Source: Raja brachyura
Taxonomy: Eukaryota
Assembly: GCA_963514005.1 (NCBI GenBank)
Contig: OY740807.1
Location: 29,140,001 to 29,204,000 of the forward strand
Length of the DNA: 64,000 nt
Direction of reading: 5' to 3'
In this document: piece by piece, positions 1 through 39,000 of the stretch
Layout of the letters: every line of letters starts with the position of its first letter
How positions within the stretch are numbered: the stretch's first letter is position 1
Position numbers: made by a program

Positions 1-3000
1 CTGGGGTTATGGGTGAAAATCCATCAAAATGGATAATTGTGAAGTAATGCAGATTCATAGCCGAGTGATGAGGAATGATCTTAAACAGGACGTAGAGTCG
101 AAACCCCTTGAAACTAATACTTGTTCACTGTTCAATTACAGATGAAATAATGATTGAGGCTGGAAGTTCTCTGGATGCAGAAAGCAACTGAAATAACTTG
201 TATCCTTATCAACATTAAATCGCCACTAGCATGTTGAGTTGATGTCTGTATTATTCATAACATGGGCACATCTGAAAATACATTCTTTTTCCATGCACAT
301 TGATGGGTTATTATCCACTCTTCCCCATATTTCTGTTCCCCATTGTGTAGTAACGTAGCAAAACAAAGGTGACAATGAAATGTATTCAGATTTCAGTGGG
401 CCAAATAAAGATTAAGCCAAGACCGTTTCCACTGAACAGAAGGTTAATTTCAGCAGGAAATGTTTGCAGACAATACAGATATTTCTAAAGACCATTACAC
501 TTTTAGCTTTTATGACAATTTTCAATGCAACCAACGGAATGGGGACTTGTATCTCATTAATTATCTGTCTATGGCTTGTAACGCATAGTCAGTTGTTTCT
601 TAATCTAACCAGGATGGTCTGGACTGGTTAGCCATCTGCTAAAAATATCAGTTTCATTATTTAAAAAATTTGGAAAACTGATCTGCATCATTGCATTTTA
701 TTTTATGAATAAATTTAGGTAAAAGAGAAACATTTCCCAGAGGTGTAAGTTTAAATAAGAATCACAAAAAAGATTTTTAGAATTAGATACACAAAAAGTG
801 AAAGGCTAGGTTTTCTGAACAACGTTTTTTTAATCCATGGAAACACCACTGGCATTAAAAACAAAGCACATGAAAAATCTAGGCAGCATCACAAAGTTAC
901 TTTATACGACATGGACTAATCAAATGTCCTAGGAAAGTAGATGCCTTAGTAATGCCATTGCAGTCATCTTTTATCTCCAACCAGACTTTGTCGCCATGAT
1001 TCAAGCCTATAATTAAGCTGGCAGATGCAACTTCATAGTAGGAATTAAAAGACTGGAAGGTGCTCCACACAATAGCACCGTTTACTTTGAAAACTACATA
1101 TGCATTCATCGTGTAGATTTGGAAGATGTATGTAAAGCGATACACACCAGATATCCTACAAAGGAAAATGCCTGAGCTAGCCTGGAAATCCCCATCTCCA
1201 TTGTAGATTAATCTCTGCCAAGCAATTGGTACACCAACTGAGGTATCACTCGTGCCAAGTGCAACTGAAAATGCAGATGTTAGTGCAACAGCATTAGCCC
1301 CAGCCATTCCCATTGCTCCAGTATCACCTTTTGGACCCCTGAGTCCCTGAGGCCCCATTGGTCCCATACGTCCCCTTTGCCCTGTTTCGCCACGAACTCC
1401 TTTGCGGCCTGGTTGCCCATTGTGTCCGTTCATACCTCTCCGACCCGGAAAACCCATTGCACCCCGTGAACCAGTCCATCCGGGCATGCCAGCTGCTCCA
1501 GGAGCACCCCTTGCGCCTGTCTTTCCCGGCATTCCATTGGAACCTCTCCAGCCCATTGGTCCAGGTTGCCCATCGTCACCTTTAGCACCGCGTGCTCCGG
1601 TTGCGCCTTGTGGACCTTTAGGACCTCGTGGTCCAATATAAATAGCTGTAAAAAAAAATTGTGTCTAGTTACAAATTGCTGAGATTCATAGATGTCACTT
1701 GACTATTTGCAAAAGGTGAAGTTCACAATAATATATATCATAGCCACTTTAATTCTCCATAGATGTGGTACAAAGTTTTAATTGAGAGATTTCACATCAC
1801 TTTTCTCACTCTAATCATAGATGACACATACTTGTTCCAAATGACCCTCTTAGGTGTTGAAAGAAAGCCGACAGAACTTTGAAAGTATTCACAAAGAATC
1901 TTCCAAATATTCCTCCTATCTATGCATGGAGACTCCTCTCTCCAACAACATTCCCCCATCATACATTGCCCATCTTCTATCCATGTTACATCCTCTCCTA
2001 CAGCAAATCTTAACTGTTGATGATGTGCACTAGTCCACCAGCTCCCTGAAAGTAGCAACACAAATAGATAGAATGGGATATATACATATACATCAAATAT
2101 ACATCAATGATCTAGATGATGGGGTGGAAAATTGGATAAGTAAGTATGCAGATGATACTAAGATTGGTGGTGTTGTGGATAATGAAGTAGATTTTCAAAG
2201 CCTACAGAGAGATTTGGGCCATTTGGAAGAGTGGGCTGAAAGATGGCAGATGGAGTTTAATGCTGATAAGTGTGAGGTGCTACATCTTGGCAGGACAAAT
2301 CAAAATAGGACGTACATGGTAAATGGTAGGGAATTGAGGAATGCTGTGGAACAGAGGGATCTAGGAATAACTGTGCATAGTTCCCTGAAGGTGGAATCGC
2401 ATGTAGAATGGGTGGTATAGAAAGCTTTTGGTGTGCTGGCCTTTATAAATCAGAGCATTGAATATAGGAGTAGGGAAGTAATGTTAAAATTGTTCAAGGC
2501 ATTGGTGAGACCAATTCTGGAGTACAATTTTGGTCGCCTAATTATAGGAAGGATGTCAACAAAATAACCATATAACCTTCTCGGCCCTTCCAGTCCGTGC
2601 CGACCATTTATTTTCCCCTAATCCCATCTACCTGCACTCAGACCATACCCCTCCATTCCCTTCCCATCCATATCTATCCACTTTACTTTTAAATGTTAAA
2701 ATCGATCCTGCCTCCACCACTTCTGCAGGAAGATCATTCCACACAGCCACCACTCTCTGAGTAAAGAAGTTCCCCCTCATGTTACCCCTAAACTTCTGTC
2801 CCTTAATTCTCAAGTCATGCCCTCTTGTTTGAATCTTCCCTACCCTCAATGGGAAAAGCTTATCCACGTCAACTCTGATTATCTGTTTCATCATTTTAAA
2901 GACTTCAATCAAGTTCCCCCTTAACCTTCTGCGCTCCAAAGAATAAAGACCTAACTTGTTCAACCTTTCTCTGTAACTTAGTTGCTGGAACCCAGGCAAC

Positions 3001-36000: not shown

Positions 36001-39000
36001 AGGTCGATGGAGCCAAGCACCACTCTGTCTGCGTAAGTCCATTAATGTTAAAGTTTCAAGAACCTGGTACTTAACTTTCCCATTGAATATAATCCATTTC
36101 TTATTGCAGCTTTACAGTATCTCTGGTAGGCTTCATCAAATATTCCAGTATCAAACAAACCAACTGCTAAGCCTGTCAGCAATATATGTCCATGTTAATT
36201 GTGGTAGCAGTTCCTGACAAAAAGTCAAATGGGTTTAGGTTTATATTGTCACCTGTACTGAGGTACAGTGAAAACCTTAACAGTTCCAGAGGCAAAGTCC
36301 AATGTCTGCAATGATGTCGGCTAAAGGTTAAAAGTATATATATTTAACAGAAATGTTGTGCAATTTGAAAAAATACATATACTTTTAACCTTGAGTCTTT
36401 CTGAGTCAAGTTGTCATCTATTTGTTAAGAATCAATTCTTGACAGGCAATTCAGGACAGATTTTCTGATGGGGGACTTCTTGATCTAAAGTACCCTTTTT
36501 GTTAGCTCAATAACACCACACAGTGGCTAAAGTATTGCTATATACACATCTTATCATAATACATGCCAGTTAATGCAGTAATACATTAACTGCTTCACCT
36601 TACAAGAATCTTAATGTTGTACTCATTTTTTAGAAGAAAATATATTGGTTTATTAAATTAAAATGTCAGTAATTTTAATCAAACTTTGAATGTTGTTTCT
36701 AGCAACACCAAGGTTCTTCCCAGGACCAAAGGGTGCAACAGGCGATCCTGGTCTCATGGGAGCTAAAGGTGAAATGGGTAATGCTGGAGCTACAGGACCA
36801 ATGGGCCCTGCTGGTATGCCTGGAAGAAATGGAGCGAGAGGTGCGAGAGGGCCCAACGGTAGCCCAGGAGCAGCCGGATCTCCAGGCGCTGCTGGAATGC
36901 CAGGGCCAGGAGGAGCAAATGGCAGGAATGGTATCAATGGTGCAAAAGGTGCTGATGGTGATCCTGGTGCAACTGGAGCAACTGGTCCTCAAGGCAGCCA
37001 AGGGGAACCAGGATACAAGGGAGAGCGAGGAGATCCTGGGATGCCAGGTGCTCCAGGGATCTCCATTGCATGGAGAAGGTCTGCGTTCTGTGTCAAACTT
37101 GGCACTGGCAGTGTTACTTCTAACCAACCGATAGCTTTCCAGGAAATTCTGTATAATGAAGATGGTGACTATAACATTGCGACCAGCACATTTATTTGTC
37201 GCCTTGCAGGTGTCTATGCATTCCATGCTTATAATGAAGTGAATACTAGAAATGCACACACTGCAATAATAGTAAATGGGCGACGTGTTTACTCTAATTT
37301 CCAGTCATATTCTTCATATCCTGAAATGTCAACACTTGGTACAATTGTAAAACTGAAAGTAGGTGACAAAGTTTGGGTACAAGCTATTGATTCAGATACT
37401 GGCATTTGCCGTAACAGTTATTTCATGGGATACTTGATTTACGAGTGCAAGTAGAAATCCAATATTTGACTACATAACTTCATATTTCACGTGTATCTAA
37501 TTCCAATATCGATCTTAACTACCATCTAAATTTGACATTTTCATTGATCCATGTCTTATGTTGTCATGTTACACCCATGAAACTATCTCAAAACAACAAA
37601 ATGTGCTAACTCAATTTTATAGATGCATGAGTCTGAAATACCTTACTATTTTGGGGCTGAGGGGTCATTTTGTTCTTGTCTGCATGCAAAGAAGACCCAA
37701 TTTTGCTTCAAGGCTGCCCTTTATCTTACATAGACTCCACTGATAAATCGGCCCCAGCCTTATTGCAGGACAATTCACACCTCAGAGCCTAAGCTTAGAT
37801 CAGCAATTTCATCTGTACATTATAAAACCATACAGTGCAAGCTGGCAGGACAGAAACCAAAATGACCCCTTCAAAAAATAAGATTACATTTGGTTATTTT
37901 AAAACATTCATCACTGAATTAATCAAGAAATCATAGTTTCAGTGAAAGCAATTGAGAAAGCAATAAATGAGACAATATTGTGCCTTTTGGCAGTGATTTT
38001 GATTGGAGCAATTTAGATGTGTCCCGTCATGAAATGTGCATGTAAGGAAAATCAGCAGCAGATAACTTAAGATGATCCGAGACCTTAATGTTGATAATGA
38101 TGCAATAGTCAGTTATTGTACCTGATATAATTGAATATTCTGTTACCACTGAACCTGGCCATAACAATACATTATCAAACATTCTGAGCAAATAATGAAT
38201 CTGATAGACACCTGCATTTATTCAGAATTTGAACTATATTGCATTTGTTACTCAGTATATCCATGTATTTTCTCACATGAGCTGTAATTGTAACTGGCAG
38301 AGGTTGTCTTAAACCAAGTCACACTCCTCAGCCTATGTGAACCTGGTTATTAATTGGACAGAACCTAGTTAAAGATTGGCAAATATGTTGTCAATATTTA
38401 ACAGAATGTACCATCTAAATCAATGTCTAGAGTGGGCAATGGGTTCTGACCATCTTTGACTGGGAGCCCGATATCTGAAAGTTGCTGCTTAACACTACTG
38501 GCACCAAATCCTGGAGCAAAGACAAAATACTGAAGATAGTGTCTTTGCGTTGCATTAATTTCTGTCTGGATTTATCTGAAATTGGATTTCTTTTATTGTT
38601 CTTTCAGAATTCACTGCTCTATGAAATCTTAATTGTATGGATATTTTCAAAGATACACAATAAAATAAATCCTGCTTTCACATGCATGGTGGTTTCAAAT
38701 GGAATTTTCATATTTCTCATTGCTGCAAGTTTATTTGTATATTTAATAATCATATGAGTAAAATAATATATGTGCTCCTGTTAGCACTCTGAACTTTAGG
38801 ATATGGCCTCAGTGCCCATCACCGTATTATGACTGCACAATACACCCTCTCCCATTCTGTACTGAACCATACCTCAACTTGAACTGCATCAAGTCCCTGA
38901 CTCCCAATCCTCATTCTCCACTCCAGGCCAACACTGGCACTGCACTGGCTGAGTTTGAGGCTTAGAACCTTCCACATGGAGCAGCTAAGTCCATGATCTA

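Follow-up and report, generated by a model that had tools for sequence, protein, structure and literature searches.

A head-to-head pair of sushi-collagen-gC1q genes in the skate Raja brachyura, candidates for egg-capsule collagens

Results and discussion

Two divergent genes share a five-coding-exon layout

We analyzed a 64,000-nucleotide stretch of the genome of the skate Raja brachyura (assembly GCA_963514005.1, contig OY740807.1, positions 29,140,001 to 29,204,000 of the forward strand; hereafter the window, whose own numbering we use throughout), which is free of N, and found that it carries a head-to-head pair of genes whose products join a sushi (complement control protein, CCP) domain, a collagen helix and a globular C1q (gC1q) domain. 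The pair spans 897..37454, and these limits are exactly the two stop codons. Gene A is on the minus strand (stop 897-899) and gene B is on the plus strand (stop 37452-37454); their start codons, at 10519 in gene A and 32508 in gene B, are 22 kb apart. In each gene, a signal exon is followed by two small pro-region exons, a single sushi exon and a terminal exon that encodes both the collagen helix and gC1q. The original prediction, made from the sequence of the window, described a divergent pair with a common five-coding-exon layout and intron phases of 1,2,1,1, and the splice table confirms this for both genes, with AG at every acceptor and GT at every donor. It also held that several small exons are missing from the list of open reading frames (ORFs) or lie inside longer ORFs, which is what we found. 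We located the small exons by tblastn of shark homologues together with a phase-aware scan, and we read the splice sites from the sequence; tblastx of the two upstream regions returned only transposon matches and the sushi exons and did not reveal the small exons. All searches, alignments and the fold prediction were performed on single exons, and total lengths are sums of exon lengths.

In gene B, coding exon 1 (32507..32580, plus strand) has its ATG at 32508, encodes MVPMWWLGLCLAGLFLPQTYGVPA and ends in phase 1 at the donor CAG|gtaaga. Exon 2 (33906..33978; 73 nt, phase 1 to 2) came from the candidate scan and has strong splice sites, and its product (...SENAMADIQDSIFLGQRDYLYGD...) resembles the pro-regions of P0007, P0123 and P0126. 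Exon 3 (35219..35274; 56 nt, phase 2 to 1) encodes ...SGVQNSENLDANDLQKRD, and exon 4 (35874..36032; 159 nt, phase 1-1) encodes a sushi/CCP domain with five cysteines. The terminal exon 5 (36703..37454) encodes 38 Gly-X-Y triplets followed by gC1q and a tail that reads ...YECK before the stop codon. By pattern match only, the first hexamer past the stop that looks like a poly(A) signal is at 37962..37967 (plus strand). Together, the exons of gene B amount to 1110 nt or 370 codons with no defects, in agreement with the 370- and 372-residue models of Heterodontus and Scyliorhinus canicula.

In gene A, all exons of which are on the minus strand, coding exon 1 (10447..10520) was placed by tblastn and translation; it has its ATG at 10519, encodes the signal-like sequence MPPIWVLGVVLTGFFLCQFHGSLA and ends in phase 1 at the donor CAG|gtaaga. 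Exon 1 has 73 coding nt in both genes, and exon 3 is also of equal length in the two; in gene A this exon (7050..7105; 56 nt, phase 2 to 1) encodes the pro-region sequence ...SALLESGANQQGLQKRDY with a dibasic KR. Exon 4 (4888..5049; 162 nt, phase 1-1) encodes one sushi/CCP domain with five cysteines. Exon 5 (897..1645), which we assigned from Pfam, sequence matches in the PDB and a fold match, encodes 38 Gly-X-Y triplets, gC1q and a tail that reads ...SPCRIK before the stop codon (899-897), and the first poly(A)-signal-like hexamer past the stop is at 829..834 (minus strand, again a pattern match only). In both genes, the acceptor ttctttcag|A lies one base ahead of the ATG, which implies an upstream non-coding exon.

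Exon 2 of gene A is the exception to this orderly structure. The stretch encodes 'ELIGRNDRA', which is homologous to the pro-regions of P0004 and P0005, and an ancestral-looking long form of the exon (8398..8451, minus strand, 54 nt) has a good acceptor (catctttcag). Three-frame translation shows that this long form meets a stop and is one base off frame, since only a length of 52 or 55 nt would preserve the reading frame. Our tentative assignment is instead a microexon of 19 nt (8398..8416, minus strand, phase 1 to 2) with a weak acceptor (aattaatag, with a poor polypyrimidine tract) and a weak donor (gtgttt). The microexon is the sole one among 8 phase-1-to-2 open candidates in the stretch 8300-8600 that covers the conserved 'IGR..R' motif; the whole intron offers 131 such candidates. 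With the microexon, the exons of gene A amount to 1056 nt or 352 codons and are clean apart from exon 2. A blastn comparison of gene A exon 2 with gene B intron 1 gave no match above chance. The defect could reflect a genuine lesion, shortening of the exon or an assembly error of one base. One explanation, which we consider rather unlikely, is that gene A is a decaying copy here and that only gene B is functional. The frame error of the long form, the loss of the ancestral donor farther 3' and the weak splice sites of the microexon that would rescue the frame all point that way. However, the remaining exons of gene A are open and have canonical sites, exon 5 is free of defects and 85% identical both to a related record and to a Rhinoraja longicauda model, the promoter block described below is retained at 92%, the pair of 19-nt and 56-nt exons preserves the frame, and a one-base assembly error may account for the defect.

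Near-identical promoter blocks precede the two genes

Each gene is preceded by a conserved 5' block, at 10736..10998 (minus strand) for gene A and at 31968..32228 (plus strand) for gene B. The two inverted blocks are 92% identical over 263 bp, their edges are sharp, and we found only these two copies in the window. The conserved sequence takes in ~120 bp ahead of a TATA-like box, followed by a putative non-coding exon (~25 nt) and ~95 nt of intron. In gene A, the block contains the core promoter with the TATA-like sequence 'CTATTTAAAAGG' (about 10884-10873), a putative short non-coding first exon and the first ~95 nt of its intron. The TATA-like box is about 25-30 nt upstream of the putative non-coding exon (5' untranslated region; 10828..10850, minus strand), whose 5' end is approximate because the start site is inferred and whose donor is GAG|gtgagt (GT at 10827-10826). 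In gene B, the block contains the promoter, a putative non-coding exon (32114..32136, plus strand, again with an approximate 5' end) that ends at 32136, and the start of the intron; the donor GAG|gtgagt is conserved between the two genes. The coding sequences have diverged far more than the 5' blocks (the sushi domains are 41% identical and the terminal exons about 43%), and the likeness of the promoters would be maintained either by gene conversion or by strong constraint. The near-identity of the promoter blocks argues for co-expression of the two genes, which are paralogous and probably co-regulated. Inside the block there is also a short upstream frame (ATG...TGA, MFREILKA) about 26 nt past the TATA-like box, although its transcription is uncertain.

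A constant collagen rod lies between a sushi domain and gC1q

The domain order given in the original prediction (signal, pro-region, one sushi, collagen, gC1q) was borne out by translation and by Pfam searches run exon by exon, in which the expected Sushi, Collagen and C1q domains all score above the cut-offs. For exon 4, Pfam Sushi scores are 33.6 bits in gene A and 30.9 bits in gene B (cut-off 20.7); for the terminal exons, Collagen scores are 70.7 and 65.6 bits (cut-off 27.2) and C1q scores are 75.4 and 74.3 bits (cut-off 23.7), respectively. The product of exon 1 is hydrophobic and signal-like as judged by eye. The pro-region encoded by exons 2 and 3 is poorly conserved and ends in GLQKRDY (gene A) or DLQKRD (gene B); its K/R-R motif is found in most relatives.

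When we aligned the sushi modules of related proteins (see below), we found that C3, C25, C39, W45 and C52 are invariant, and the sushi exon is of phase 1-1 in both genes. Exactly five cysteines are present in 9 of the 10 single-sushi elasmobranch modules of the family, and the tenth has six; the fifth cysteine occupies one of two alternative positions. At the other end of the protein, 13 of 15 family C-termini carry a cysteine among their last 5 residues.

The collagen rod is constant in length. Genes A and B each have exactly 38 uninterrupted triplets, as do 14 of 14 elasmobranch sequences of both paralogue types. The two halves of a Callorhinchus model have 38 and 37 triplets, and two variants with more than one sushi domain have 38 (P0191) and 37 (P0193). 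The imino-acid content of the rods is low: in gene A, proline fills 7 of the 38 X positions and 6 of the 38 Y positions, compared to 6 and 10, respectively, in gene B, and the gene A rod is rich in Met and Arg. A collagen triple helix rises 0.286 nm per residue, and at this value the helix of 38 triplets (114 residues) would be ~33 nm long if it is triple-helical. The constancy of rod length across both paralogues suggests either that the rod serves as a ruler or that the two chains need to be of matching length.

For the gC1q domain, we compared both sequence and predicted fold with solved structures. By sequence, gC1q of gene A is closest to collagen X NC1 (66.6 bits), the globular domain of mouse adiponectin/ACRP30 (61 bits) and collagen VIII NC1 (58.8 bits), and gC1q of gene B is closest to CTRP5 (C1q tumor necrosis factor-related protein 5; 57.5 bits) and adiponectin (50.8 bits). 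The exon-5 monomer model has a mean predicted local distance difference test score (pLDDT) of 50.8; the gC1q part forms ten strands with block means of 60-86, and residues 1-134 fall below 50. As the monomer model assigns no structure to the collagen part, we used only the gC1q part, which matches adiponectin, collagen X NC1, collagen VIII NC1, CTRP5 and C1q heads with template modeling (TM) scores of 0.78-0.85 on the target.

The genes belong to a chondrichthyan family

The original prediction proposed a family specific to chondrichthyans, and within the searches that we made this holds. Proteins that combine Sushi, Collagen and C1q were found in 8 named species, all of them chondrichthyan (sharks, a ray and a chimaera): Chiloscyllium punctatum, Scyliorhinus torazame, Carcharodon carcharias, Mobula hypostoma, Scyliorhinus canicula, Callorhinchus milii, Heterodontus francisci and Heptranchias perlo. 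Genes A and B have every feature that defines the family, namely a signal, a pro-region with (K/R)R, one to three sushi domains, 37-38 triplets and gC1q, and their closest named relative is a Rhinoraja longicauda model, at 80% and 85% identity. When we searched 1.84 billion representatives by HMMER with gC1q of gene A, only 5 proteins were found at E<=1e-30. Among the best 150 gC1q relatives from this set, a family-type sushi is present only in P0121, P0002, P0191 and P0193; 144 of the 150 were new representatives, and the two of these with such a sushi are P0191 (three sushi domains, 38 triplets and gC1q) and P0193 (two sushi domains, 37 triplets and gC1q). The next-best named relatives are teleost CTRP9A proteins, at 32-37% identity. 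The original prediction had stated that standard members of the C1q family lack a sushi domain, and none is present in the CTRP matches listed. Existing annotations of the family in several genomes read 'uncharacterized', 'collagen alpha-1(X)/(VIII)-like' or 'CTRP2/9B-like'.

In a tree of gC1q domains, we found an elasmobranch A-type clade (8 rows, support 100/100) and a B-type clade (5 rows, 100/99), which contain genes A and B, respectively, along with shark members and are sisters (90/88); support for the whole family is only 87/49. The rows exclude most CTRPs, adiponectin and collagens VIII and X, and a half-length Mobula row was omitted. In a first version of the tree, a bryozoan row with a branch 4.6 long fell inside the family, and the tree was rebuilt without it. 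Clear orthology to a standard CTRP or otolin had been named as evidence that would tell against a separate family; we found that the family is not nested in the sampled teleost CTRP9A, frog CTRP2, otolin-like or C1qA rows. Transcripts that skip the sushi exons had been named in the same way; the sushi exon is present in genes A and B, and it is skipped, in frame, in one case at the level of gene models (Hemiscyllium B-type P0126). The Rhincodon and Hemiscyllium models are inside the same clades without a sushi part. As to whether the A and B types separated before chimaeras and elasmobranchs did, both Callorhinchus halves fall outside A+B in the unconstrained tree, and the alternatives (A grouped with Callorhinchus half 2, B grouped with half 1) are not rejected (p-AU 0.20 and 0.18).

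Two of the database models deserve separate mention. The Callorhinchus-type P0121 (716 residues) consists of two complete family proteins in tandem, and both of its halves, as well as P0191, open with the same 24 residues (MTPVWLLGVILAGFFQAPTDGVSA); the identical starts suggest that one shared first exon is spliced onto several gene bodies, that exon 1 underwent conversion very recently, or that the annotation is at fault. The Rhincodon A-type model P0003 departs from gC1q after ...SGIC and ends in ...GEKAGD, which is like a transposon-tail motif of the window, and this may point to an insertion into the last exon or to read-through out of it.

Compared to known systems, the products of genes A and B are gC1q short-chain collagens that stand apart by an N-terminal CCP domain. 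They are like collagens VIII and X (COL8A1/2, COL10A1) in that a helix, here predicted to be secreted, is followed by a C-terminal gC1q (NC1), which would likewise trimerize, and, as is generally known for COL10A1, a single large last exon encodes helix and NC1 together. In contrast, the helix of collagens VIII and X is ~450 residues long and has imperfections, compared to 114 uninterrupted residues here, and it is preceded by an N-terminal NC2 rather than by sushi; genes A and B also have spare cysteines at both ends. Adiponectin and CTRP1-15 share the signal, the variable region, the short collagen stalk and gC1q, and they build higher oligomers through N-terminal cysteines. Unlike them, genes A and B have sushi between pro-region and collagen, a fixed rod of 38 triplets and a C-terminal tail cysteine, and in our trees their family groups apart from the sampled CTRP9A and CTRP2 rows. 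In complement C1q, which also combines a collagen stalk with gC1q, the paralogous chains A, B and C of neighboring genes form one molecule, and CCP domains occur in the same system; to our knowledge, however, no C1q chain carries a CCP domain. The gC1q similarity to C1q is weaker (38-43 bits to C1q C), and genes A and B are head to head and 22 kb apart. The tandem copies of Col10a1 in chondrichthyans are described as syntenic with Frk and Nt5dc1 in the parts of the source available to us (PMC6759074). We considered them as a possible identity for genes A and B and rejected them, as these copies are of the form signal peptide-GXY-C1q and genes A and B have sushi (PMC6759074, same parts).

Haem peroxidases with the same sushi domain are linked to the family

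When we searched with the sushi profile, we found haem peroxidases of the MPO/EPX-like type that carry the same sushi in 9 chondrichthyan models (the P0143, P0178-P0185 group). They are like the family in having a homologous sushi, including the fifth cysteine (five cysteines in 9 of 9 modules), and in their location on the same chromosome; they differ in having a 550-residue haem peroxidase domain before the sushi and, where collagen is present, only 6-7 triplets. Callorhinchus P0143 and Mobula birostris P0179 add these 6-7 Gly-X-Y triplets and gC1q after the sushi. The gene B sushi shares 43% identity with the P0143 sushi, compared to 41% with that of gene A, and peroxidase gC1q is 34-36% identical to family gC1q. 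Wherever a family gene and the peroxidase are both on record, which is the case for four species (Heterodontus, S. canicula, Heptranchias and Callorhinchus), the two are assigned to contigs of equal length, which places them on the same chromosome. The Rhinoraja model P0125 begins in sequence that is intronic in the window, includes the A-type last exon up to ...DDCNG and is then spliced into a peroxidase, indicating that in Rhinoraja the peroxidase lies directly downstream on the same strand. No peroxidase exon was found in the window, where the expected position is beyond the left edge.

A possible egg-capsule lattice and competing explanations

The interpretation that we favor, tentatively and short of confidence, is that these proteins build a disulfide-linked, peroxidase-cross-linkable extracellular lattice, plausibly as egg-capsule collagens from the oviducal gland. 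It was read from sequence features and would work as follows. The signal peptide would send each chain to secretion, and the pro-region, which ends in Leu-Gln-Lys-Arg, offers a possible convertase site, so that the mature chain would consist of one sushi domain, the 38-triplet rod and the C-terminal gC1q. By analogy with other gC1q collagens, gC1q would nucleate a trimer and the rod would zip, to form a dumbbell that bears three sushi domains on one side and a gC1q head on the opposite side. The fifth sushi cysteine, if unpaired, and the tail cysteine would give three covalent valences at each end of the trimer. With spare cysteines at both ends, trimers could polymerize end to end into a network. 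The neighboring haem peroxidase, which carries the same sushi, could dock on or co-assemble with this network and cross-link it.

The evidence that this lattice belongs to the egg case is circumstantial: the fixed rod of 38 triplets, the spare cysteines at both ends, the linked peroxidase and the damaged models of viviparous species. In the viviparous Rhincodon, Carcharodon and Mobula hypostoma, the A-type models have truncated or aberrant gC1q ends, and the A-type models of the oviparous Chiloscyllium and S. torazame are intact. B-type models were met only in the oviparous S. canicula, Heterodontus and Hemiscyllium (these are gene models, and absence from the matches is weak evidence). Dogfish capsule collagen is ~40-45 nm long with globular ends, dimensions that a 33-nm rod with sushi at one end and gC1q at the other would fit, and a peroxidase is involved in hardening of the capsule. 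As far as the accessible parts of the published work go, dogfish egg-case collagen has been grouped with the network-forming collagens IV, VI, VIII and X (PMC5974872), carries heavy covalent cross-linking (PMC4500399) and forms a capsule that the oviducal gland secretes from its baffle zone (PMC10230700, PMC8894161), and a catechol oxidase of the little skate capsule is on record (cited in PMC4806620). Egg-case collagen has been studied as a material for decades, and the papers that we consulted, again in part, describe a network-forming, cross-linked collagen and no gene; it is known as a protein and material. Our literature searches, from which subscription papers were largely absent, found no paper with a sequence of egg-case collagen, none tying egg case or capsule, collagen and C1q in shark, catshark or skate, none combining sushi, collagen, C1q domain and chondrichthyans, and none on fish haem peroxidases with a C1q domain and their phylogeny.

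Several findings weigh against an egg-capsule lattice. The tail cysteine is missing from P0007 of S. canicula and from P0196, the sushi exon is missing from the Hemiscyllium P0126 model, and exon 2 of gene A is doubtful, so gene A may be impaired. Apart from the Rhinoraja fusion model, the linkage to the peroxidase shows only that both are on the same chromosome. The peroxidases carry automatic names of the myeloperoxidase/eosinophil peroxidase-like kind, which suits leukocyte defence equally well, and peroxidase-C1q proteins, in a form without sushi (P0162, P0165, P0168), also occur in teleosts, a group that lacks an egg case of this kind. The contrast between oviparous and viviparous species rests on three models that may be mis-annotated, and an intact A-type model is present in the viviparous Heptranchias perlo. 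Finally, a capsule is also made by viviparous sharks, according to the part of the source that we could consult (PMC8894161).

The explanation that we rank next, and regard as somewhat unlikely, is that these are soluble defence collagens, present as trimers in the circulation or mucosa, whose gC1q would bind microbial or altered-self surfaces and whose sushi end would recruit or regulate effectors; the peroxidase with sushi and gC1q would then be a leukocyte or secreted microbicidal enzyme directed to the same targets. It is generally known that gC1q and CCP are hallmark modules of complement, the linked peroxidases are named MPO/EPX-like in their sources, and peroxidase-C1q proteins occur in teleosts too. 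Moreover, one of two trees put teleost C1qA and peroxidase gC1q in a clade with the family (95/96). However, this grouping vanished once one long-branch row was omitted, the source names of the peroxidases are automatic, and a 38-triplet rod that is fixed in both paralogues, together with spare cysteines at the ends, would not be expected of a recognition molecule. Decay of gene A, as considered above, would be compatible with this and with each of the other explanations.

It is also conceivable, but in our judgment improbable, that the proteins are structural components of the matrix of another tissue (teeth or denticles, cartilage, the otoconial matrix of the inner ear, or skin), in the manner of otolin-1 or the Col10a1 copies. 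Every structural argument for a lattice is equally valid in this case, gC1q is near to collagen X and VIII NC1 (66.6 and 58.8 bits; TM 0.81-0.82), and duplicated gC1q collagens serve chondrichthyan teeth and scales, as stated in the accessible parts of PMC6759074. Against this, the Col10a1 copies described there have no sushi, collagens of that type are generally known to have far longer helices, and the window holds no pointer to any particular tissue. Automatic annotation as 'C1q tumor necrosis factor-related protein 2-like' or '9B-like' would make the products CTRP/adiponectin-like secreted hormones, which we consider the least probable of these explanations, and very improbable. The shared architecture of signal, variable region, short collagen and gC1q is in keeping with such hormones, as are the teleost CTRP9A proteins as nearest bony-fish matches and the presence of adiponectin and CTRP5 among the best matches to solved structures. 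In contrast, the family forms its own groups (A 100/100, B 100/99) outside the sampled CTRP9A and CTRP2 rows, the CTRP matches listed have no sushi, and the family is linked to a peroxidase.

If the egg-capsule lattice is taken further, genes A and B and the peroxidase might form a conserved chondrichthyan 'capsule toolkit' locus, in which rods of equal length, expressed from near-identical promoters, co-assemble into the nanolattice of the egg case and a peroxidase that shares their end domains is built into the lattice that it hardens. We consider this extension doubtful. If it is true, it would identify the genes behind selachian egg-case collagen and would illustrate how an enzyme can be brought to its substrate by sharing the assembly domains of that substrate. 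The fixed rod, the knob at each end, the spare cysteines and the linked peroxidase make a concrete egg-case candidate that can be tested cheaply. If the egg-case role fails, the combination of CCP, collagen and gC1q would still stand outside the standard C1q, CTRP and collagen VIII-X families, and it would inform how complement-type modules were recombined in the early history of jawed vertebrates. Should these proteins already have been named through egg-case proteomics, the window gives the skate orthologues and their gene structure.

Other features of the window

The 22 kb between genes A and B are filled with transposon remains. At 12.7-14.3 kb (minus strand), 22483-23659 (minus), 26517-28298 (plus) and 29081-29773 (minus), we found ORFs of long interspersed nuclear element (LINE)-type reverse transcriptase that are interrupted by a stop codon, along with a nuclease of the Harbinger type (DDE_Tnp_4) and a Tc1-like transposase (DDE_3). 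Tail fragments of short interspersed nuclear elements (SINEs) or LINEs, with the motif 'GYGEKAGTGY', recur in the introns of both genes. From 37.5 to 64 kb we saw no further host gene, and the only ORFs seen elsewhere in the window are those of transposons. A DIRS-like retroelement with a tyrosine recombinase, a reverse transcriptase and a gag-like ORF is present in two copies, at 46323-50561 and 56750-60491 (minus strand), and GC content in the window peaks within the first copy (0.55 at 50-52 kb).

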